A stretch of DNA of 64,000 nucleotides, taken from contig CAVXZB010000006.1 in the NCBI GenBank assembly GCA_963765895.1, positions 33,166 through 97,165 on the forward strand. Direction: 5' to 3'. Every line of letters starts with the position of its first letter. Positions within the stretch are counted from its first letter, which is position 1. The position numbers and the translations under genes are program-made. The DNA comes from an uncultured Nitrososphaeraceae archaeon. GTDB lineage: Archaea; Thermoproteota; Nitrososphaeria; Nitrososphaerales; Nitrososphaeraceae. The notes beneath the pieces were generated by a model, which saw nothing but the letters and a program-made list of their open reading frames with translations, did not search any database and was not told where the DNA came from. Below are positions 9,211-63,571 of the stretch, piece by piece.

Positions 9211-9353
9211 CCGTAGAGTCCAAGATCTAATTCATTTTGTATATAGATTCAGACATACCTTCTAAGGCAAACTCACTTTCGGTATGCAGAATGAAACTGA
9301 ATCACCATACTTTAATACGTTATTTTGTTTTAAGATTAGTAGTAATAGCAATA

Positions 9354-10293
9354 ATGAAATCTGTTCAAATTAGTAAGTATGGAAGCAGCGAAGTTATCGA
9401 AATCACTCAGAATGCCACTATACCAAACATGCCTGCAGCTGGAAAAATTCTAGTCAATATAAAAGCCGCTGGCGTAAATCCTGTAGACTGGAAAATTCGT
9501 GAAGGTTACTTCCAACAGATGATGCGACTCCAATTCCCCTTTACATTGGGTATGGATTTTTTCAGGTATCGTCAAAGAAATTGGGGAAGGTGTGTTAGAT
9601 TTCAAACAAGGAGATGAAGTATATGGACAAGCTGGAGTAGCTACTGGTGGGTCAGGAGCATTTGCAGAGATGGCAATGGCAAATGCGGAAAATATCACCC
9701 ATAAACCAAAGAGGCTAAGCCATGTCGAAGCTGCTGGCTTACCGCTTGTAGGAGTTAGCGCCTGGCGAGCACTTATTGAAAACATTGGATTATCAAATGG
9801 TCAGCGGATTCTAATTCATGGTGGAGCTGGAGGTAGAGGATCAATTGCTATACAGCTTGCCAAGAACTTGGGAGCATTCGTTGCGACAACAGCAAGTGCA
9901 AATGACAAGATGTTTGTTCAAGAACTGGGAGCCGATCAAGTCATAGACTACAAGAGCCAGAACTTTGAAGATCTGCTGCATGACTATGATTCAGTCTTTG
10001 ATACTGTAGGTGGTGAAACATACAAAAGATCTTTCAAAGTCTTAAAGAAAGGTGGCATAATAATTTCTATGCTAGAGCAGCCAAACTTAGAGCTGATGAG
10101 TCAATACGACATCAGGGCAATATTTCTGTTCACACAAGCAGATAGAGAACGGTTGACTAAATTGGCAGAATGGGTGGATCAAAATAATATAAGAGTAAAT
10201 GTAGACAGGACATTTTTACTAGATGAGGCTAGTAAGGCACTAGACTACCAAAAGGATGTCCATCCAAGAGGTAAAGTGGTCCTGACCGTGTGA
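9354..10293 (+). pseudogene. NADPH:quinone oxidoreductase / MDR family, frameshift in T-run ~9560
   Basis: AAGVNPVDWK, LGMDF, LIHGGAGG, GKVVL. Confidence 0.85.
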
Positions 10294-10429: not shown

Positions 10430-10831
10430 GTGAAAGACATACGTTTGAAGTCAGCAACGGCCCTACGTAATAGAATCCTAATTGTAGATGATGAGCTCGA
10501 TGTTGCTCTTACTTTAAAATTGGGATTGGAAGTCAACGGATTTGTAGTCGAGACGTATAACGATCCATTAAAAGCACTATCAGACTTTAGGGCAAATTCG
10601 TACGACTTGTTACTGCTTGATATAAAGATGCCAGAGATGAACGGCTTTGAATTGTACAGTAGATTGCAACAAATAGATCATAATGTCAAGATCTGCTTCA
10701 TTACTGCATTCGAATTATATTTTGATGAATTTCAGAATATGTTTCCTAAGCTAAAAGTAGAATGCTTTGTACACAAACCAGTATCAATAGATACTCTAGC
10801 CAAGGTAATAAAAGGCGAGCTTACCGAATAG
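10430..10831 (+). CDS. Stand-alone response regulator receiver (REC)
   Basis: ILIVDDE, LLLDIKMPEMNG, CFITA, KP. Confidence 0.9.
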   Translation: MKDIRLKSATALRNRILIVDDELDVALTLKLGLEVNGFVVETYNDPLKALSDFRANSYDLLLLDIKMPEMNGFELYSRLQQIDHNVKICFITAFELYFDEFQNMFPKLKVECFVHKPVSIDTLAKVIKGELTE

Positions 10832-13542: not shown

Positions 13543-13954
13543 CTAAGAATTCAATTCTTCCTTTATTCGTTTTGCTAACTCGTCTATATCGATGGGTTTT
13601 TGAATAAAGCATTCTACTTCAGAGTCTTCTTTTCCTTCTTTATTTTGATACTTTGCACTTGAACTACTGTGAGAGTTCTGTTTGAGCTCTTCGTGATATA
13701 CATCAAATGCTGTGATAAAGCATATCTTAACTCTGTCATCTATCTTTCTTATCTCATGATATAGTTTAGATCCATCCATCTTTGGCATTTTATAGTCTAT
13801 GAGCACAAAGTCATAGGTGCCGCTCTTGAAATCAGATAATGCTTGTAAGGGATCATTAAATGCATCAACTTTAAAACCATTATCCTGAAGACCCAGGGTA
13901 TAAACAGTTGTAATATCCATTTCATCGTCTATTACTAGTATTCTTTTTTGACAT
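13543..13954 (-). CDS. Stand-alone REC response regulator (ATG offset by one extra A in an A6 run)
   Basis: KRILVIDDE lies in frame upstream of the listed ORF; IDYKMPKMDG, CFITA, QKP. Confidence 0.8.
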
Positions 13955-15634: not shown

Positions 15635-16042
15635 TTATTCGCGCCCACCATACATTATTCGGTCTATATGTTCTAAGAGCTCTTCATTTGTTATAGGCTT
15701 CCGAATAAAACAGTTAGCAGGAAGAGAAGAAAATATATCAGAATATGACCCATAATACATTTCTCCAGCTGTAAGAAAGCATACTTTCATCTTATCATCA
15801 CGTTTCTTAATCTCTCTATAAAAAGAAAAACCACTCATTTCTGGCATCTTAATATCAAGAATTAATAGATCGTAGTAATGAGGTTTGAAGTTTTCTAAAG
15901 CAAGAAACGGATTCTCATGTGAATCGACGATAAAACCGTTTTTCTGTAGCACCTTGCGTAATGTTATGTTAACATCAGGTTCATCATCGGTAACTAGAAT
16001 CCTTTTTGACATTTCTATTACCTTGTTTATATATGCAAGCAT
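15635..16042 (-). CDS. Stand-alone REC response regulator
   Basis: MSKRILVTDDE, LDIKMPEMSG, CFLTA, RKP; true start probably at MSKR. Confidence 0.9.
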   Translation of the reverse strand: MLAYINKVIEMSKRILVTDDEPDVNITLRKVLQKNGFIVDSHENPFLALENFKPHYYDLLILDIKMPEMSGFSFYREIKKRDDKMKVCFLTAGEMYYGSYSDIFSSLPANCFIRKPITNEELLEHIDRIMYGGRE

Positions 16043-21823: not shown

Positions 21824-22779
21824 GGCTCTGTAGAAACCATGTTCTGAATACCGTTAGAGCTTTCTAGACGTATGATCCAATATGGATGTTGAAAGAATCA
21901 AGATATGTTAGGCTGGCTAATACTATGTACCGTGTCTTGAGAAATTCAAGGATACCATTGTTTCTTCACAGAAAGAGCAATCATGTATTTATGATATGGC
22001 AGCATTTAGTATTACTTACAATAAGACAGTACAAAGGTAAGAGTTATAGGATGTTTGTCGAGTGGTTAGTCGAGGCACATTACCTTAGATCGTACCTACG
22101 ATTGTCACGTATTCCTCATTTTACAACATTGCAAAAGTTTACAGACAGACAGAATTAGCAATTCACTGCTTGAGAAGATAATTTCGTCATTCATTGTAAT
22201 TAGCTGTACGAAGCATATCTTTGTAGGAATAGATTCAACAGGATTTAAAATAACTCATGCTTCACAGTATTATGATGAACGAATAGAAGCAAGAAGAAAA
22301 TATGCGAAATTATCTATTGGAGCTGACGTACTACAACAGATTATCTGAAACATAAGGATAAGACGAGCTCCTACAAGACATGATAATGTAGATTTCAAGC
22401 CAATCATAACAAGAATAGCTGAAATTCTACCACTATCCGTAGTTACAGCTGATAATGGATATGATAATGAAGATAATCATCAGTTGGTAAGAGAAACCTT
22501 GCATGCATTCAGTGTTATTCCAGCTCGATATGAACATGTACCGATATGGAGAACACATGGCAGATATAGAAAGCAGATGAAACGTGGATATAACGAACTA
22601 TTGTACAATCAACGAAACAAGGATGAGACCATAATGTCTGTCATAAAACGACTATTTGGAGAATATATTTCTTCAAGGCTAGTAAAAACACAGAACAGGG
22701 AACTATCATTCAGATGCATAGCCTATAACATGCACAGGCTAACGAATATTGTCATTTTTGTGATGATTTCTACATGGCC
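21824..22779 (+). mobile_element. IS5 family (IS903-like) insertion sequence, 956 bp
   Basis: Imperfect TIRs GGCTCTGTAGAAACC / GATTTCTACATGGCC; 9-bp TSD TATTTGAGA at 21815-21823 and 22780-22788. Confidence 0.9.
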
Positions 22780-22786
22780 TATTTGA
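21886..22786 (+). pseudogene. IS5-family DDE transposase, frameshift plus internal stop
   Basis: IPHFTTLQKF, IDSTGF, ADNGYD, YNQRNKDETIMSVIKR. Confidence 0.88.
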
Positions 22787-23156
22787 GACTACAATCCATT
22801 ACTTCGTTTATAATTTTTAATAGATCTTCATTTGTCACAGGCTTTTGAATTATACAGTTGTCTGGTAGTGAAGAAAGAATATCTGAATATTCTCCATAGT
22901 TAATTTCTGCAGCTGTAAGAATACACACTTTCATCTTGTCATCAAGTTTTTTAATCTCTCTATAAAAGGAAAAACCATTCATCTTTGGCATCTTTATGTC
23001 AAGAAGTAATAGATAGTAAAAATGAGGTTTAAAGTTCTCTAAAGCATCGAGTGGATTATCAAATGAATCAACAGTAAAACCATTTGATTTGAATATCTCA
23101 CGTAATGCAGTATTGATGTGAGCCTCATCATCGACTATAATGATTCTCTTTGACAT
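22779..23156 (-). CDS. Stand-alone REC response regulator
   Basis: IIIVDDE, LDIKMPKMNG, LTA, QKP. Confidence 0.9.
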   Translation of the reverse strand: MSKRIIIVDDEAHINTALREIFKSNGFTVDSFDNPLDALENFKPHFYYLLLLDIKMPKMNGFSFYREIKKLDDKMKVCILTAAEINYGEYSDILSSLPDNCIIQKPVTNEDLLKIINEVMDCSLK

Positions 23157-23596: not shown

Positions 23597-24000
23597 TTAA
23601 TCTAATTCTGAGGCTAATCTTTCAATTAAATATTTTATCGACACTAGCTTTTCGATAAAACATCCAAAACCTACATTACGGTATACTTCTCTTAGAGCCT
23701 GGATATTTACTGCTAATGCAGACATAAAACATACTCTCATGTTAACATCTAATTCTAATAACTTTTCACATAACTGAAAGCCATTCATGTTTGGCATATA
23801 AATATCGGTTAGAAGAAGATCATAATAATGTGGTTTGAATTGTGTCAATACCAATAAAGGATTGTTATATGCGTATACTTCAAATCTTTTCTTGTTGTCA
23901 CCATCGCCATAATAATGACCGTCTAAACCCACTTTGAAAGTTAATGTAATGTCGGGATCATCATCTATGACAAGTATCCTTTTGATAAATGGTGATTTTG
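23597..24000 (-). CDS. Stand-alone REC response regulator (start uncertain)
   Basis: In-frame KRILVIDDDPDI upstream of the listed ORF; TDIYMPNMNG; no canonical start codon seen. Confidence 0.75.
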
Positions 24001-30918: not shown

Positions 30919-31125
30919 GCCTACTGTCGAATTGCAACTAGAACTATGTGCTGCCTTATTGTAAATATATGATTACTTTTCCTGTTAGAAAATAGAGGAA
31001 TCCTTGCCTGCTTCAAAACACTGAACATAGTATCTGCAAGTCTAATGTACCTTGATTCTTTCAATAGACTATTGGTATTATACTCTTACAAAGCTTTGAC
31101 TATATGATATGATTTCTACACAGCC
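30919..31125 (-). mobile_element. Left-end fragment of a related IS5/IS903-like element
   Basis: TIR GGCTGTGTAGAAATC then LKESRYIRLADTMFSVLKQARIPLFSNRKSNH, homologous to the 21886 ORF. Confidence 0.85.
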
Positions 31126-34290: not shown

Positions 34291-34744
34291 ATTTACTACA
34301 GAATTGTAGTAAAGCCAGAGTTCTCTACCTACAGTTTTACAGCCTATAGAAATCAATACCAATAGAATGTCATGATTGCCAAAGCAACAGCAAAAAAGAA
34401 AAAGAACTAACGGTAGACGAAGTCAAGAAAATGATTTACAAGCAAATTGAAAAGAAACAGAAACAAATCGACCAAACCTGATCTCATGACTGAAAAAATC
34501 TTTGGCAAATCTGTGAATACAGATCTGAAAGATATCATACACAACTTGTCTGGTAATTGGATCCAGCTTAATCAAATATTTTTTAGTACTTTGTCTAGAC
34601 CTGAAAGTATATATCTAGCCATTTGAGCCATTGCCTCACTATGATTTTTATCCTCGTTGATAAAGAGTGCACAAAAAGATAACATCTTATAAAGTGATTG
34701 TCGTTGGTAACTGAAGCAGCATACATATCGGAAAAAGTATTATT

Positions 34745-35960: not shown

Positions 35961-36326
35961 ATCGCCCGGTTAGAGTAATTCTGGCTGTGCTTCAATTATG
36001 CATTTGCTGGCATTTGAGCATCTCACTCATTTACGAAGGCTGTGATCACAGTTAGTGAGCCTGTCTGAGCAGCGTTTCTGGGGGTTTACTCGCCGGCTTA
36101 CTGGTCTTGGGCTAGGATTCGATTCAATAAATCTTTGGACACAGTATCATGAATAGCTCAAAATCTGGCGAGCATCTAATACAACCTTCGTGACCCAGTG
36201 TTATTTTTGTTATCGATGTTATCGCAAATTAGAATGAGATTCCTTCTGGTAGCGTTACGACTTATGCTAACACACATTCACATTAGAGAATATGCTGATA
36301 GGAATCCGCTGCTGCGACTTCAAGCA

Positions 36327-36900
36327 TTAACTTAACGTTACTATTCTGTGTAAATATATACATTCTACCTTTAGCTTTTCCATGCCTATTGGTAGATAAC
36401 CATCTTTCTTTACATTACTAATATTGCGTCTGACGACGTAATTTGGAAAGTCCAAATGTCGCAAAGAGTTGTACTTAAGCCAACTACTTATTGTTTCATT
36501 GGCCTCTTCGCCGGCGAGTCTTCTTATATTAATAAGATATGGAACCACGATACGCCAAACTGTAAATTTCCTGCAATCATCTAATGGAGTTTATAATAGC
36601 TTCTCAATCCATCAGATCTTCATCTAATCGGGTTATTTGTGAACGGGCGCGAGCCATCTTACTATCCAACTGTCTGCGTTATTCTACCTTTTCATCTATA
36701 AGCCATCTCCGGAATCGGCGCAATAGATATTGTATCGTGGCCTTTGACGATTCCACATTTGTATAATCTTGACTACCTGTCCACACTTGAATTAATTGTT
36801 CGTAGAATTCTATCAAACATGAATTTGAAGCCGGCTTAACTGAGTAATCCAACTTTGGAATATGGTGATCAATAACGATACATGATGGATTAACTCTATC
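36327..36900 (-). pseudogene. PriX-like / primase-associated protein remnant
   Basis: WIEKLL*TPLDDCRKFTVWRIVVPYLINIRRL..ISSWL..GYLP; 5' boundary approximate. Confidence 0.65.
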
Positions 36901-46769: not shown

Positions 46770-48133
46770 ATGAAAGTGAAAAAAATAAATGCAGATAAAG
46801 ACAGTAACAATGACAAAGGCATTTTGTTAAATAACAAACAATCAAAGTTCTCGTCTACCAAAGAAAAACTCAAGTCTTTGGGTCCGGGACTGATAACGGG
46901 AGCATCCGATGATGACCCTTCCGGCATAGCAACATTTTCTCAGGCCGGAGCACAGTTTGGCTTTGGAATGTTATGGATGGCGTTATTTCAATATCCCATG
47001 ATGACGGTCATTCAGGAAATATGTGCAAGGATAGGTCTTGTGACAGGTAGTGGATTGGGAGGAATATTAAAAAAGAAATATTCAAAAAAAATTCTTATTC
47101 CACTTTCTGGCCTTGTGCTTATTGCAAATACAATAAACATCGCAGCTGATATTGCTGCCATGGGTGGCAGCTGTCAGACTCTTGATTCCTCAGGTACCGA
47201 TTTTTATTACTACAATTCTTTTTGTAATATTTATCGTTGGATTGGAGATCGTCGTCCCATATCAAAAATATATGAAAATTCTGAAGTATACTGCTCTCTC
47301 TCTGTTATCATATATTATTACTGCAATAATTGTTGGAGGCGAGCTGGAGTCAAATATTGACTTTCAGTGTAATTCCACATATCGAGATTAAACCAGAATT
47401 CGCAACAATGTTTGTTGCCATAATTGGTACTTCTATATCACCATATTTATTCTTCTGGCAGGCATCAGAAGAAGCTGAAGAGGATGTTGCTAAGCAAAAA
47501 ATTAAGGAAATCGGTAAGGGCAATCCAGAGGTAACAAAAAAAGAAATAAAATTAATGCGAATAGATATCGCAGTAGGAATTGCTTTTGCAGAGTTAATTG
47601 TTTGGGCAATTGTGATAACTACAGCTGGAAGTCTTCATACTCATGGAGTAACGGATATACAGTCATCAGAACAAGCTGCAAAAGCGTTGGAACCACTTGT
47701 AAAGACTTTTCCTCACGCAGGTGAAATTGCAAAGGCAATATTTGCATTTGGTATAATTGGTACTGGATTACTAGCAATACCTGTGTTGGCCGGTTCTTCA
47801 GGTTATATATTGGCAGATACTTTTGGATGGAAACAAGGCCTGAACAAAAAATTTAAACAGGCCAAAGCATTTTACATAGTTATAGCCGCCGCCACTTCAA
47901 TAGGCTTGCTAATTAACTTTGTAAATATCGATCCTATAAGAGCATTAGTATATGCCGCAGTTATAAACGCCATTACTTCTATTCCTATTCTTTTCGCTGT
48001 ATTGAAAATATCAAATGATAAGAATTTTCTCAAGACCGAAACGAATGGAAAATTATCAAATACTATCGGGTGGATAACCTTTATTGTAATGGGTATTTCA
48101 GTAATTATTATGTTTATTACATGGGGCAAGTGA
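46770..48133 (+). pseudogene. Nramp-family divalent metal transporter, two +1 frameshifts (47167, 47341; possibly artefacts)
   Basis: GPGLITGASDDDPSGIATFSQAGAQFG, GTSISPYLFFWQ. Confidence 0.88.
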
Positions 48134-51973: not shown

Positions 51974-54850
51974 ATGCGACTACAGGAATATAACAACAAG
52001 AGAAATTTTGGAAAAACACCCGAACCACATGGTAGAGCTAATAAATTTGCTAAAGATGATTCTAGTCGTTTAAAGTTTGTCGTACAAAAGCATCAAGCTA
52101 CAAGACTACATTATGACTTTAGACTAGAAACAGAGGATGGTGTATTAAAGTCATGGGCTGTGCCAAAGGGAATTTCATTAGATCCTAAAGTGAAAAGACT
52201 TGCAGTGTTAACAGAGGATCATCCTTTAGATTACTTAAACTTTGAAGGAGTAATACCTGAAGGAAATTATGGCGCTGGTTCAGTAATAGTATGGGATACC
52301 GGCTACTATGCTGCAGAAGATCCAAAACAAACACTTTCTCAACAATTTATTAGCGGTAAGATCGCATTTAGTTTATTCGGAAAAAAATTAACCGGTAAAT
52401 ACTTCTTAGTAAAGACTACAAGAGAAAATCAATGGTTGCTGATAAAAGGTGCTGACGAATTTGTATCTGCCACTGAAGATTTGGCTATTAGTAGACCAGA
52501 GTCGGTTCTGACCAATAGGACAAATGAAGATTTGAAGGCATATAATAAAGGAAGTACAAGGTCAACGCACATCGCTTTTCAAACATTCCAAAATCCTGGA
52601 AAGCAAACAATCAATCAAGATAATAATAATAAAAGTATAAGTAGAAGTAAAGAAACAGCTGTAACACGACGAAAATTATCGACTGCGAAAGATTCTGAAT
52701 TCCCAACCAGTATAAAGCCGATGTTAGCTACACCAGTCGACAAAGCGTTCGATAGTAAGGAATGGGTCTTCGAAATCAAGTGGGATGGAGTTCGCGCAGT
52801 TCTATTTCATAATAAGAGTAACATGAAAATGCCATTTCTAGAATTGTCGTCTAGAGCTGGAAATTCTATCGCGCACAGATATCCAGAGATCTTGGAATCA
52901 ATCGGCACTATAACATGTAATAGGTCAGTCGTTTTAGATGGTGAAATTGTAGTATTAAATAGACAAGGCTATCCAGATTTTCAAAGCCATCAAAGAAGAA
53001 TGAATGTTGAAAATTACGGTGATATACATACTCTATCTCATCAAATACCCGCAACATATTATTTATTTGATATACTGTATCTTGATGGTAAATCCCTACA
53101 GAACCTAGATTTTATAGAAAGAAGAAAAGTTCTATCAAGCATTATTCAGACAAACTATACAATAAAACTCTCAGAATTCTTTGAAGAAAACGGAATCTCG
53201 TTATATAATAAAATTAAAAGTATAGGTCTTGAGGGTATTATTGCAAAGAAGAAGAATGGTAAATATTCTCAAGGCACAAGATCAAGAGATTGGCTAAAAA
53301 TAAAAGATGTAAAAACTCAAGATAGTGTAGTAATAGGGTATACTAAAGGAGAGGGAAATAGAAAGAATTATTTTGGATCACTGCTGCTCTCTGCATATAA
53401 TGCTCTAACACATCAACAAAGATTTGTAGGTCATACTGGAAGTGGATTTAATTTCGAACAACTTGATAATATTTATACCAAGATAAAAGAAATGATCACA
53501 GATAAATGTCCAATCAAATATGTACCATATACAAATCGAGACCCAATCTGGATAAGACCTGAGCTTGTAGCGGAAATAAAGTATACCGGATGGACAAACG
53601 ATAGGATTATGAGAGCACCTATTTTCATTAGATTTAGAGAAGATAAAAAACCTGAAGAATGCATAATAGAAGATGAAAGGCATGTAGAAGAAGTTGTTGT
53701 TACTAATGCCGATGTTCAGTCGAGAGAGACATTCAAGCAAAAAATGACAGTAAGACCAACTGATAATGATGAACAAAAAAAAGACATGAACATGTCATCA
53801 CATTCTTTATCCTCAACATCCTCATCATCATACAGTGGGTTTTCAAATCTTGGAAAAGTATTCTGGCCAAAAACTAAAGAGCATTCGGAATTAACAAAGG
53901 GAAATTTAATTGAATACTATGATAAGGTCAGCAGATATATTCTTCCACACCTTAAGAATAGGCCTCTTTCATTAAGCAGATATCCTGATGGCGTTGAAGG
54001 CAAACACTTTTACCATAAAAATTGGGATAAGGAAAAACCCACCTATGTGCAGACAATAAAAATATATTCAAAGTCAGCCAATAATACCGTAAATTATCTA
54101 ATTTGTAATAATAAAGATACGTTACTATGGATAGTTAATTTAGGATGTATTGAAATACACCCATGGTATAGTAGAGTGAACGATTTGGATGCTTGCATCA
54201 AAGGAATAAATCGAAAGGAAATGCCCGTAGTTGACGAAGAAAAGTGTGGATTAGGATTCCCAGACTTTATCGTCTTTGATCTAGATCCATACATATATTC
54301 AGGATTTGAACAAGAAGGAAATGGAGCTGCTGCAATAGAACCAGAATACAGTATTAAAGGCTTCAAAGCAGCTGTGAATATAGCATTTCATATGAAAGAT
54401 CTTTTTGATCAGTTAAAGATCAGAAGCTACGTTAAAACGTCCGGTAAAACTGGCCTACACATCTATGTGCCAATTGAACCATCTACTTATACTTATAGCC
54501 AGACCAAAGGGTTTGCTAAGATCATCGGAACATTACTCCTCAAAAGATATCCTGACAAAATTACAATGCAGTGGGATACTGCACAGAGAAAAGGAAAAGT
54601 TTTCTTTGATTATAATCAGAATTCAAAAGGAAAAACGATAGCCTCAGTGTTTTCTGCTAGGCCTACTACTTTAGCAACCATATCTATGCCTGTAAGATGG
54701 GATAAGCTAAATGACATTTACCCTACTGATTATACTATACTCAATGCTCCTGAAATTATAAACAAGTCTACAAATATAGATACTTGGGAAGATATATTGA
54801 ATAATAGACAAGATATAATTAAAATATTGCAAGACCTAGACTTGGGTTAA
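51974..54850 (+). CDS. ligD: DNA ligase D: phosphoesterase + ATP-dependent ligase + primase/polymerase fusion
   Basis: PE: FVVQKHQATRLHYDFRLE, SWAVPKG; LIG: EIKWDG, LDGE, FD, EGIIAK, WLKIK; POL: RYPDG, FDLDP, KTSGKTGLH. Confidence 0.97.
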   Translation: MRLQEYNNKRNFGKTPEPHGRANKFAKDDSSRLKFVVQKHQATRLHYDFRLETEDGVLKSWAVPKGISLDPKVKRLAVLTEDHPLDYLNFEGVIPEGNYGAGSVIVWDTGYYAAEDPKQTLSQQFISGKIAFSLFGKKLTGKYFLVKTTRENQWLLIKGADEFVSATEDLAISRPESVLTNRTNEDLKAYNKGSTRSTHIAFQTFQNPGKQTINQDNNNKSISRSKETAVTRRKLSTAKDSEFPTSIKPMLATPVDKAFDSKEWVFEIKWDGVRAVLFHNKSNMKMPFLELSSRAGNSIAHRYPEILESIGTITCNRSVVLDGEIVVLNRQGYPDFQSHQRRMNVENYGDIHTLSHQIPATYYLFDILYLDGKSLQNLDFIERRKVLSSIIQTNYTIKLSEFFEENGISLYNKIKSIGLEGIIAKKKNGKYSQGTRSRDWLKIKDVKTQDSVVIGYTKGEGNRKNYFGSLLLSAYNALTHQQRFVGHTGSGFNFEQLDNIYTKIKEMITDKCPIKYVPYTNRDPIWIRPELVAEIKYTGWTNDRIMRAPIFIRFREDKKPEECIIEDERHVEEVVVTNADVQSRETFKQKMTVRPTDNDEQKKDMNMSSHSLSSTSSSSYSGFSNLGKVFWPKTKEHSELTKGNLIEYYDKVSRYILPHLKNRPLSLSRYPDGVEGKHFYHKNWDKEKPTYVQTIKIYSKSANNTVNYLICNNKDTLLWIVNLGCIEIHPWYSRVNDLDACIKGINRKEMPVVDEEKCGLGFPDFIVFDLDPYIYSGFEQEGNGAAAIEPEYSIKGFKAAVNIAFHMKDLFDQLKIRSYVKTSGKTGLHIYVPIEPSTYTYSQTKGFAKIIGTLLLKRYPDKITMQWDTAQRKGKVFFDYNQNSKGKTIASVFSARPTTLATISMPVRWDKLNDIYPTDYTILNAPEIINKSTNIDTWEDILNNRQDIIKILQDLDLG

Positions 54851-54985
54851 GTTAACGTCTTGTTGCTGTAATTCACCATATCATACTGGTTCTAACTTAC
54901 CATCCTTTCTATTTCAAATGCAGTCAACAAGTATTCCCTAAGACTAGACTGTAACTGACCCAATCTCCTACTATATTTGTACCTG

Positions 54986-55859
54986 CTAGCACATTTTATT
55001 GGATTCTCTTTTATCGTGTCTCGCGGATTGTTGCAAACTAGCTTTCAAAGCTGCAACTAAATCTTTGGTTTCAGCTATCGGTTCTATTTCTTTCATAGTA
55101 AAGGTTTTGCCCTTTGACTCGGCCTCAATTAACTTTTTCAGTTCTGTTGCATAGGAATCGGAATATAGAGAAATATCAAACTGTTCTGTACCTAAGATTT
55201 TGTACTAGAAGTTGTCCTAGCTCCAGTTCTTTATTATCGATTTTGGCTGGAGTTGCTTCGGAGATCTCTTTGATATCTTCTACAGGTCTTATCTCGTCCA
55301 TATAACGAAGTATGTGCATAACAATACCTCTTTGATAGGCTCTTAAGGCTACAAGATGTTCTTTGTTTTCTCTTAGAGTAACTTTACCTATACATATCTT
55401 GTTATTTTCCTTTAATACTCTTACTAGCAAGCTATATGCCTTGTCTAATGTCGTACTAGTACCTTTCTTGACATCAGGTGCTACGTAATAGCTTTTTTCT
55501 ACAAATATCGGATCAAATTCGTCTAGATTTATGAATTCTTTTACATCAATCGTTCTTGTTGTTTTTAGCTTTATCTTGTCTAAATTTTCCTTTTCTATTA
55601 TAATATATTTATCCTTTATTATTTCATAACCCTTCTTTATTTCTGCGTAAGAGAACTCCTTTTCGTCTATAGGACACCATCTCTTGTATTGAATTTTGTG
55701 ACCATTTGGACATAATTGATTGAAAGAAAATTCTTTATCGTATGTTGCATTATATAATCTTACTGGGATACTTACTAGTCCAAAACTTATACTTCCTTTC
55801 CATAGTGATCTTGGTGTTGAGGATTTGTTCTTCATTCCTTCTTTCTGTTTGGCAGACAA
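54986..55859 (-). CDS. ku: Prokaryotic Ku protein; +1 frameshift at ~55191 (probably artefact)
   Basis: WKGSISFGLVSIPV, KGYE, EKSYYVAP, LRYMDEIR; shifted tail YSDSY..LIEA..DLVAALKASL. Confidence 0.92.
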
Positions 55860-55862
55860 ATA

Positions 55863-56180
55863 TTACTGCCTCATTTTGCTACTAAGGCGTGTATACCGAG
55901 TAGCAATGCCATATGCCAATATGAATAAGCCTACGAATATGAGAATTTCAAATATTAGCTGAGCTTGAGCGGGCGGGACACCATTAACTGTATTCGGTAG
56001 ACCTGTTTGTGGATTCACATTATTTTTGACAACCTGGGTTACATTAATGGAACCAAAGTAAAGAGTACCAGATATCCCGATGACTAGAATGACTACGCCT
56101 ATGGCAACAGCTATTCTCCATCTTTTCTGTGAATGCAAGATACCACCTATAAAATTGCCTTTATTAACTTTATCAGCCAT
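55863..56180 (-). CDS. Two-TM small membrane protein, likely co-transcribed with ku
   Basis: Two hydrophobic segments; stop 3 bp before ku start. Confidence 0.7.
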   Translation of the reverse strand: MADKVNKGNFIGGILHSQKRWRIAVAIGVVILVIGISGTLYFGSINVTQVVKNNVNPQTGLPNTVNGVPPAQAQLIFEILIFVGLFILAYGIATRYTRLSSKMRQ

Positions 56181-56509
56181 AACTTTGTATTACACTACAT
56201 TATACTTTTAAGTTACAAGGTATTTTCTCCGTTGCTAATATCGATCTTTGTGAGATATTAATTTTTTTTAATAGATTTTGTATATATCTAGCATTTACGA
56301 GATGGATACAAAAATCAACATATGAAATAGCAATATATCTAATGTATTAATTTACTTTAACCAGAAATGAATTGATTTCTCAATAAATAATATTTATTAA
56401 GTGTAGTTTTTCACTGGGTAATTAAAGATAACAGAAGCATGCATAATAAATAAACCGCCTATAAAGGCACCACTAGTGATTTACGAAATATACTACCTTT
56501 ATTTGCTGG

Positions 56510-57656
56510 CTACTTAAGCAGGACAGGCTGTGCATCAATACGCACACGAAATAAAGTGTACGGTTTGTTACGTAGATCTCGTCCCATATTGAACTTGGCC
56601 TGTCGATGCAATTGGTTAGCAGTCACATAAAGGTAACCGTCAGTAGCAAGCGATAATGTATCAGGCCATAATAGTCGTGAATCGTGTATTACTGTCTCCC
56701 ATATGCCAGCTCGAGTTCTACGCATAATAGCATTATGCTCGTAATTGGTCGAGTAGATGTTTCCTGACGCATCTGATTCCAGCCCATCAGAAGCGCCTCC
56801 TTTGTCCCCCTCATCAATTATAGTTGTAGCGACCGCTTTATCATCAAGTGAGCGGTCCACTAAGGCATTCGTGTCAACGCTGTAGAGCCTTCTGCTACTT
56901 AGTGGACAGTAATACAAACGGGATCCATCAGAACTTATAGCAATACCATCTGAACCCATACTTGCACCTAGTTTTACAGATCCGTCTGGTTGATGCTCTA
57001 ATAATGGCCTGCCCTCAATCATTGGAAGGAAGGTTTTCAAATCTTCTGGCTTGGTTGAAGGGTGGTCATGAAGCCGGCGCCAGCTAGTGCTTGTGGCCAG
57101 GTCGACAACAATAATTCCATTAGGCCCATTTTCGGCAGAATCGGTGATATATGCGGTGCCTTCTTCGCCACGTCGTAAATCAAAGCGTACATCATTAAGA
57201 TAAGTAGTGGGGAGAGCAATGTATTCTGGGAAGAGAATCTTTTTAACGACCTTATTCGGTACTGAGATCAACGCAGACTAATTTAGGCCCTCCACATTTG
57301 GTTGGCTGGAACATTGGACTACCGGTATCAAGAATCCATAGGCGATCCGCAGAATCAACTACGACGGACTGAACAGATACAAAGGCAGACGCCTGATCAT
57401 TAGGATTGGTTTGATTCATAGCTTGGTCTGGATATGCAATTGCCTTATTGTCACGGATTTCACAAACTGTAAAAGCGACATCATCACCCCATTTTGGAAA
57501 GTTCACAAAAATACGTCCAGAGTGTGAAACAGCCACACCAGTAGGCATCGCATCATTAAAAAGAAAAATTGGCTCCAATTCGCCTAGTGCTTCCTCTACA
57601 GGTAACCTGTCCTTAGCTTGCGTGAGACCTATTGATGATTCTTTTTTTGATGACAT
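56510..57656 (-). pseudogene. Major royal jelly/yellow family beta-propeller; +1 frameshift ~57258 (possibly artefact)
   Basis: PTGVAVS..RIFVNFP, SVQSVVVD..RLWILDTG, AYITDS, DGIA, LWPDT. Confidence 0.85.
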
Positions 57657-62711: not shown

Positions 62712-63571
62712 TCACCATTGCCGTTGTCGGTATGGTTCATGACTGATATCATTGTTGGCGTGTGCCGCAGTTGGTAGACTAAAGCTAAAAGTAGCACCAT
62801 TATCATCTTGGTTATTTTCAGCCCACATTCTGCCGCCATGGGCCTCAATAATATTCTTTGATATAAAATAACCAGTCAGGTTCCACCTTGCGAGACTGAA
62901 GCAAACTTTGTGAAAAGCTTGGGAAATACCTTAGCATCTATACCAGTTCCACTATCCTTTATGGCAATAACCACGACCTTATCACCAATATCATCGTACT
63001 CTCTTTCTTTAGTTTCAGTTGTAATAGTAATAGTTCCTTTCTTAGTAAACCTGATCGTATTGACTAAGAGATTTAAAATCACCTGATTAATTCTGTTCTT
63101 ATCTGCTTCTAAATAGATATCTACTTTTTCCTTAAATATGAGCTCTATATTTATATTGTTATTGTTACTGCTCATATTTTCACTCGCAATATAATTTCTG
63201 GAATCTGTAACTGCATTCAGTATCATCTGATTTAAATTGAATTTCTCCTTTTTAAGTGATAATGAATGACTCCCAATTCTTGCGACGTCTAGGAGATCTT
63301 CTGAAAGATTTTGTATTTTCTTAGCATTTCTTCTTGCGACGTCTAAGATCTTATCTTGTTGTAATTGCCCTTCCAGCTTTCTGTGACGAAGAATCTTCGA
63401 TAAGCCGATGATCGGTTGAATCGGAGTCCTTAGCTCGTGAGCAGCAATATTAATAAAGTCCTTTTGGGCCTTATCATTAGCTTTCAGTTTTTCATTTAAT
63501 ATTCGTTCATTCCAGAGAATATCAAATATCGATCTAAATGAGTTTACTGTAACTGCACAGACAATCTTCAT
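62712..63571 (-). pseudogene. Histidine kinase HisKA-HATPase, N-truncated, stop in G2 box
   Basis: AHELRTP, NLLVN, DSGTG, GT*LVFYISKNIIEAHGG. Confidence 0.85.

Follow-up and report, generated by a model that had tools for sequence, protein, structure and literature searches.

Predicted bacterial-type end joining genes of a soil ammonia-oxidising archaeon: a fused LigD and a Ku gene with a probable assembly frameshift

We analysed a stretch of 64,000 nucleotides (the window; G000:C6:33166-97165) from the Nitrososphaeraceae genome assembly G000 (4.9 Mb, 88 contigs, 88% complete) that contains predicted genes for bacterial-type non-homologous end joining (NHEJ). A long ligD gene on the forward strand is followed by a ku gene on the opposite strand, and the two stop codons lie about 135 nt apart. 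On the ku side the locus continues, on the same strand as ku, with a small gene for a protein with two putative membrane helices, the stop codon of which ends 3 bp before the TTG start of the longest ku frame. Ku and LigD, the two components of the system, are found in one genome and are linked. The convergent orientation of ligD and ku and the position of the small membrane gene had been described in an earlier note made from the DNA letters, and the coordinates of the open reading frames (ORFs) bear out both. Table 1 lists the features of the locus.

Table 1. Features of the ligD-ku locus; positions refer to the window, residues to the encoded protein
Feature	Position	Strand	Remarks
ligD, modules PE-LIG-POL	51974..54850	+	958-aa ORF, no stop; four Pfam domains above cut-off
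3'-phosphoesterase (PE) module, residues 38-147	52085..52414	+	LigD_N PF13298, E 2.1e-40, full profile
ATP-dependent ligase (LIG) module, nucleotidyltransferase and OB, residues 249-558	52718..53647	+	PF01068, PF04679
Primase-polymerase (POL) module, residues 641-932	53894..54769	+	LigD_Prim-Pol PF21686, E 2e-74, profile 1-250 of 254
ku C-terminal part, about 65 codons and stop, shifted frame	54986..55190	-	TAG at 54986-54988
Frameshifting extra base in ku	55191		TGTAC[C]T on + strand, A[G]GTACA on gene strand; absent in G004
ku, first 222 codons with the beta-barrel core of Ku, TTG-start frame	55194..55859	-	PF02735, E 3e-44
Gene for two-helix membrane protein, 105 aa	55863..56180	-	two hydrophobic segments, residues ~19-48 and 68-97

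The earlier note had read ligD as one uninterrupted frame of 958 codons with three modules in the order PE-LIG-POL, and this reading agrees with the ORF and with the Pfam matches. All Pfam scores of LigD were far above the curated cut-offs. Within the ligase module, DNA_ligase_A_M (PF01068) covers residues 249-444 (E 5e-38) and the OB domain DNA_ligase_A_C (PF04679) residues 463-558 (E 1.5e-21). Each module was also matched by solved LigD domains: the PE module by 2lj6 and 3n9b (E 1e-48 to 1e-49, with the strings HYDFRLE, WAVPKG and EDHPLDY conserved), the ligase module by the ligase domain 1vs0 (E 1.7e-41) and the POL module by the polymerase domains 5op0 and 6sa0. Motif strings with catalytic roles known from the bacterial LigD literature are located at residues 46 (HYDFRLE), 61 (WAVPKG), 81 (EDHP), 269 (KWDG), 769 (DLDP), 823 (SGKTGLH) and 879 (DYNQN). 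At the level of sequence the protein has the KxDG ligase lysine, a POL module of the archaeo-eukaryotic primase type with the DxD metal site and a 3'-phosphoesterase module, as expected for a member of the LigD family. The ortholog in G004, another metagenome-assembled genome (MAG) of the same genus, has equal length and is 96% identical, with zero indels over 2877 nt.

In the POL module the DLDP motif lies between two lineage-specific inserts, at residues 741-762 (22 aa) and 773-791 (19 aa), corresponding to positions 54194-54346 of the window. They are shared by about 80% of the archaeal LigDs and are missing from at least 8 of 10 bacterial ones in the comparison. A further insert of 10 aa in the ligase module (residues 345-354) is filled in every archaeal row of the alignment.

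The N-terminal part of ku encodes a prokaryotic Ku core with a beta-barrel of the Ku70/80 type (PF02735, profile positions 1-188 of 190, at residues 25-212) and is 97.7% identical to the intact Ku of 287 aa in G004. As assembled, the longest ku ORF spans 55176-55859 on the reverse strand and has 227 aa; an alternative in-frame ATG start is located 24 nt inside the TTG. The G000 assembly does not hold this ku in one complete frame, since the frame breaks after codon 222. The remainder was recovered by tblastn in a shifted frame, where it is matched by residues 222-286 of the G004 Ku at 94% identity. If base 55191 is removed, ku reads through like the gene for the 287-aa protein of G004. A second one-base difference at position 54998 alters the last residues only, which are ESK* in G004 and ESNKMC* in the window. 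In G006, a further genome of the same genus, the ku gene (90% identical) has an intact frame of 286 aa. Judged by their domains and motifs, the two genes of the window are predicted to be those of a genuine fused PE-LIG-POL LigD and a Ku.

The earlier note had placed the ku lesion at a GTAC site and had taken it for a likely artefact. The site is indeed TGTAC[C]T, and the intact frames in G004 and G006 support an artefact, as do contigs from other samples. These contigs, from four public runs of four studies (three DNA libraries and one RNA library), were compared over 54900-56300. Base 55191 is missing from all seven that cover it (one each from runs X1, X2 and X15, four from X4). A second extra base in a TGTAC[C]T context, at 54982 outside ku, is missing from all four runs, and an X1 contig without it is otherwise identical over 117 nt. 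Elsewhere in G000 the amoA gene (C24:168102-168652) is read in three frames and the rpoB gene (C23:24785-25907) in two, through single-base insertions that turn CC into CCC and GG into GGG. Compared with G004, indels of any length are biased towards insertion, with 36 cases in which the window has extra bases and 16 in which it lacks them. Three other genes of the window, for an Nramp protein (46770-48133), an MRJP/SGL-type beta-propeller protein (56510-57656) and a zinc alcohol dehydrogenase (9237-10293), are each split into two ORFs, and the Nramp gene carries two one-base insertions relative to G004, at 47166 and 47341. Several further window ORFs cover no more than a part of their Pfam profile (amidohydrolase, luciferase-like, MIP, Carb_kinase). 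With amoA and rpoB affected by single-base insertions in this assembly too, a consensus error is the probable source of the frameshift in ku, and we regard base 55191 with good confidence as an insertion error of the assembly. Since even amoA and rpoB are broken in this way, apparent pseudogenes of G000 should not be taken at face value.

Several observations weigh against such an error. The X1 contig that covers base 55191 represents another strain, in which 6 of 274 bases are not the same, and the aEF-2 gene is intact in G000. Over the 2.9 kb of ligD there are no indels, compared with about 4 per kb elsewhere between the window and G004. Most indels relative to G004 are intergenic, and since this is so and none falls within ligD, many of them are probably real differences. 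The error rate of the assembly in coding DNA is moderate, not high. Moreover, a basecalling error specific to GTAC was considered and is unsupported genome-wide: G precedes GTAC at 21.6% of the G000 sites, similar to other palindromes, and the ratio of AGGTACA to AGTACA is 0.225 in G000 compared to 0.148 in the loci of relatives, a shift no greater than that of the control pairs AGGCAC/AGCAC and AGGATC/AGATC. The context shared by the two extra bases may be a coincidence.

It is unlikely that ku is truly frameshifted in this strain, which would then make a Ku of 227 aa without the C-terminal region. In that case the second, intact Ku on contig C19 would have to bind the ends, or the strain would be losing NHEJ by decay. 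The lesion is present in the assembly as given, the genome holds this second intact frame as well as a Ku fragment on C18, and the contigs used for comparison come from other samples. Decayed Ku and LigD copies do occur in relatives, for example in G020, where there are many stops, and in G005, which has only a match of 59 residues. Nevertheless, the lesion is private to the G000 assembly and is of the same kind as those in amoA and rpoB, which are implausible as pseudogenes in an ammonia oxidiser. Furthermore, the N-terminal part of ku differs from that of G004 by 15 synonymous and 5 non-synonymous codons, and the shifted C-terminal part has kept its similarity to the G004 protein. A programmed frameshift, recoded during translation, would fit the good conservation of both halves across the shift and is extremely improbable: close relatives, like all seven contigs of the other samples, lack the extra base and have Ku in a single frame, and a programmed site would be conserved. 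An assembly insertion thus stays our preferred explanation of the break in ku. The differences between the ligD genes of the window and G004 are distributed over the three codon positions as 26/13/57, and the pattern of substitutions in ligD and ku indicates that both are under purifying selection.

The earlier note had assigned the DNA to an archaeal host, and this assignment holds. G000 contains an archaeal amoA gene, and the closest relatives of the LigD carry the label Nitrososphaeraceae, among them Ca. Nitrosopolaris, Ca. Nitrososphaera maunauluensis and Ca. Nitrosocosmicus. Three blocks of the window (31.1-36.2, 46.4-51.5 and 51.5-56.3 kb) are 96-97% identical to contigs of G004, and the DNA flanking the NHEJ genes is 95-97% identical to it. 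The G+C content is 0.345-0.346 for the region from 52 to 56 kb and for both genes, 0.348 for the contig and 0.36 as a mean over contigs. Because of the amoA gene, the Nitrososphaeraceae relatives of LigD, the synteny with G004 and the matching G+C content, we regard the contig as archaeal and the NHEJ genes as resident: they belong to a Nitrososphaeraceae archaeon that oxidises ammonia. For a bacterial or chimeric contig, which would make the NHEJ genes foreign to the archaeon, it can be said that the system is of bacterial type and that, outside the archaea, bacteria have the nearest LigDs, at 33-37% identity. LigD orthologs at 76-96% identity in all six other MAGs of the genus, synteny with G004 on both sides of the genes and the position of LigD and Ku within well-supported Nitrososphaerales clades make this reading wholly implausible, and our check of it gave no support.

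The distribution of the genes points to a family-wide system. Full-length LigD matches were found in all six same-genus genomes, and several other genera have matches of 56-61% identity. A species-level scan for LigD yielded 68 loci, 33 of Nitrososphaerales type, one from Bathyarchaeia and 34 bacterial. Among the Nitrososphaerales-type loci 29 have a full-length match, in 27 cases in one open frame. The bacterial loci (29-41% identity) belong mostly to Bacteroidota, Acidobacteriota, Chlamydiota and Saccharimonadota. ORFs were extracted for 46 of the 68 loci; 22 partial or contig-truncated loci were left out (L058, L060, L062, L063, L074, L078, L082, L086, L088, L090-L102). In 37 of the 46 loci (27 archaeal and 10 bacterial) a single open frame carries 90% or more of the LigD match, and the LigDs of L064 and L067 are split. 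In seven bacterial loci (L075, L077, L079, L080, L081, L085, L087) the PE part is located outside the long LIG-POL frame, either as a separate gene or frameshifted.

Ku was searched for by Pfam in 40 relatives and was found in 13 of 24 genomes of the same family and in 2 of 16 from other families of the order, in one of them weakly. A wider, even sample of 151 family genomes, G000 among them, gave Ku in 106, and 72 of the 103 high-quality genomes have it; this tally includes the unpublished G092 and G054. Two counts do not favour an ordinary, vertically inherited pair of genes: Ku was not found in 45 of these 151 genomes, and in the Pfam search two of the six same-genus genomes keep ligD without a Ku match. 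Ku and LigD are therefore not always retained together.

Quick maximum-likelihood trees were calculated with IQ-TREE (LG+G4, SH-aLRT support only). In the LigD tree, made from 37 rows plus the window, all 28 archaeal LigDs are located on one side of a branch that separates them from the 10 bacterial ones (SH-aLRT 100). A branch with an SH-aLRT of 96 sets all 19 Nitrososphaerales sequences apart in the Ku tree of 41 rows. The topology indicates that the fused LigD was inherited as one archaeal clade. The bacterial rows derive from a pattern-based scan and form a biased sample, and because of this bias by the search method no donor is named.

Linkage and orientation of ku vary within the family. 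In the fetched flanks of ligD, many of them on short contigs, ku was seen at 10 of 33 archaeal loci: six times convergent downstream as in the window, three times upstream on the same strand and once divergent. At the bacterial loci ku is in the flank in 21 of 34 cases, and in 19 of these it lies immediately upstream on the same strand.

Additional copies occur as well. The second intact Ku of G000 (C19:30085-30636, frame of 274 aa) shares 59% identity with the ortholog of the window Ku in G004 and groups in the Ku tree with the Ku of another genus, G021. The Ku fragment on C18 (19075-19257) contains a stop, and short LigD-POL fragments are located at C84:521358-521624 and C20:3471-3735. Many family genomes have two Ku matches apiece. 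In the 5-Mb relative G020 (contigs C28, C45 and C61) we counted 18 LigD matches; one copy is in three frames and several are decayed with many stops, so that this genome holds a duplicated, decaying NHEJ set.

The two-helix membrane gene next to ku had been put forward in the earlier note as an unrecognised partner of Ku. Its product had no match to any Pfam family at E ≤ 0.01. Its homologs form 31 clusters of 66-100% identity, all of about 105 aa. A JGI label on 10 of the 31 clusters names the small permease of TRAP transporters (DctQ); this candidate was rejected, as no family profile matched. Matches to the wider family occur in 57 of 151 family genomes, a tally that includes the unpublished G092, mostly at 25-43% identity. 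G000 itself has seven copies, and the copy on C6 in the window alone has a ku match beside it; the other ku matches of the genome are at unrelated sites on C19 and C18.

A role of the 105-aa protein in NHEJ, for instance in tethering Ku to the membrane, would be in keeping with its position: the gene shares the strand of ku and stops 3 bp ahead of the ku TTG. The same layout is found in G004 (93% identical protein), and in G002 (66% identical) the gene is followed by a fragment of ku where the contig ends, so that the two genes are adjacent in all three genomes with close orthologs. The frame looks selected, with differences of 2/5/10 over the codon positions. A contig of 1285 nt from the soil metatranscriptome X15, about 97.5% identical, spans 54900-56169 and with it the 3' end of ku, ku itself and most of the membrane gene. 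Because DNA may occur in such libraries, this contig does not show transcription and was not counted as evidence of expression; it is no more than a weak hint that the locus is transcribed in soil and that the two genes are linked. A fraction of 0.42 of the sampled words also occurs in five further RNA libraries. Parts of the stretch have no cover in X1, to which we attach no significance.

On the other side, ku is within the flank at only 3 of the 30 membrane-family loci fetched, namely those of G000, G004 and G002, the holders of the close orthologs. The gene is beside none of the other 11 ku loci of relatives that were inspected, and among the 68 LigD loci it was seen at L035 only, which is that of G004. 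In G006 the end of the MRJP gene, 50 nt upstream of the start of the membrane gene and the ku start all align, while the gene of about 320 nt is missing and the 286-aa ku frame stays intact. The bacterial relatives lack such a gene here, and in them ligD comes directly after ku. We therefore reject a general, conserved partnership, on the 3 of 30 loci, the absence in G006 and the 11 negative loci; the suggested partner is not conserved with ku. As an unrecognised NHEJ partner the protein is a very poor candidate. Recruitment as a Ku accessory within one sub-clade, where it might place end joining at the membrane or regulate it, is also very doubtful; if true, such recruitment would be a lineage-specific add-on to NHEJ. 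The membrane gene is probably a lineage-specific, incidental neighbour from a multi-copy family and not part of NHEJ.

Among known systems, the order PE-LIG-POL is that of Pseudomonas aeruginosa LigD. The window LigD has the same three modules in the same order, and the strings of the PE module for metal and phosphate binding are conserved; the chains 2lj6 and 3n9b, which we take to be the PE domain of P. aeruginosa LigD, belong to this comparison. Relative to the fetched bacterial LigDs, which mostly have 805-867 aa, the window protein is about 100 aa longer, with longer linkers and the two inserts flanking DLDP. The Bacteroidota relatives have ku just ahead of ligD and on its strand; in the window it is convergent and downstream. 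Mycobacterium tuberculosis also uses a two-component system of LigD and Ku, and the window ligase and POL modules match 1vs0 and 2iru; the order of modules in Mycobacterium LigD is POL-PE-LIG, unlike the PE-LIG-POL of the window. In Methanocella paludicola, the archaeon with the characterised NHEJ system, ligase, polymerase and phosphoesterase are separate proteins. Both archaea have Ku and LigD-type activities, as predicted for the window from sequence, and in the window these are united in one polypeptide. The solved chains 5dmp (matching the PE region) and 5dmu ('NHEJ Polymerase'), presumably Methanocella proteins, match the PE and POL modules.

The earlier note had regarded a complete system in an ammonia-oxidising archaeon as possibly new. 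According to the main text of Abby et al. 2020 (mBio, PMC7554672), the ancestor of Nitrososphaerales acquired a complete NHEJ complex from bacteria; the complex is described there as extremely rare in archaea and the full set as previously known only from Methanocella paludicola. A Ku survey of 2025 (PMC11936186) lists 19 archaeal Ku sequences including those of Nitrososphaera sp. AFS and three Nitrosocosmicus species, and a paper of 2026 (PMC13006922) reports NHEJ components in arctic clades of ammonia-oxidising archaea. The claim of novelty fails on a condition that the note itself had set, a prior description as common in the lineage, because PMC7554672 already reports the system and Ku is present in 106 of the 151 family genomes; the fused LigD, too, is common in the lineage, with six of six same-genus genomes holding it. 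As far as the main text of PMC7554672 goes, lineage and gene set are the same, our trees and counts agree with it and nothing essential differs. The passages of it consulted do not describe the fused PE-LIG-POL protein, the gene order or Ku paralogs, which Data Set S1 or Text S1 of the paper may hold. In the accessible parts of the literature searched we found no statement of a fused PE-LIG-POL architecture in Nitrososphaerales and no biochemical test of a Ku/LigD pair from ammonia-oxidising archaea. A complete NHEJ system in Nitrososphaerales is, accordingly, already known and family-wide.

Apart from the NHEJ locus, the window contains five small stand-alone response-regulator receiver ORFs within 14 kb (10430-10831, 13543-13920, 15635-16042, 22779-23156, 23597-23932) and a histidine kinase fragment at 62876-63571. 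Between 30001 and 50000 many stretches of 100-300 nt, such as those near 30950-31125, 34320-34470 and 36080-36830, match numerous different contigs of G004 with 70-90% identity and are dispersed repeats. The part from 36 to 46 kb has no syntenic block in G004. An Rfam scan of the window gave no matches.

Taken together, we favour, at a probability of roughly 0.8, an ordinary, vertically inherited two-component NHEJ system of bacterial type in soil Nitrososphaeraceae, with the frameshift in ku as an assembly error and the membrane gene as an incidental neighbour. As the frameshift is read as an assembly insertion, the Ku of the organism is most likely complete, with about 290 aa. The domains, motifs, selection and lineage-wide presence described above were observed here, and we infer the steps of repair from the bacterial NHEJ systems that have been studied. 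A Ku homodimer would ring the ends of a double-strand break and recruit LigD. The POL module might then extend or fill the ends, with a preference for ribonucleotides, and the PE module would trim 3'-ribonucleotides or 3'-phosphates. The nick would be sealed by the ligase module via a lysyl-AMP at the lysine of KWDG (residue 269). In soil cells that grow slowly or are desiccated, such a pathway may serve to repair breaks without a template.

As a discovery the locus carries little weight, complete NHEJ being in print and the genes being present in most family genomes searched. It provides minor descriptive additions: a fused LigD of a single clade, the inserts flanking DLDP relative to 10 bacterial LigDs, the variable linkage of ku and the Ku paralogs. 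Its practical value lies in the caution that single-base insertions of this assembly disrupt genes as central as amoA and rpoB, and in the form that the system takes in these archaea, that of a LigD with PE, LIG and POL in a single chain.

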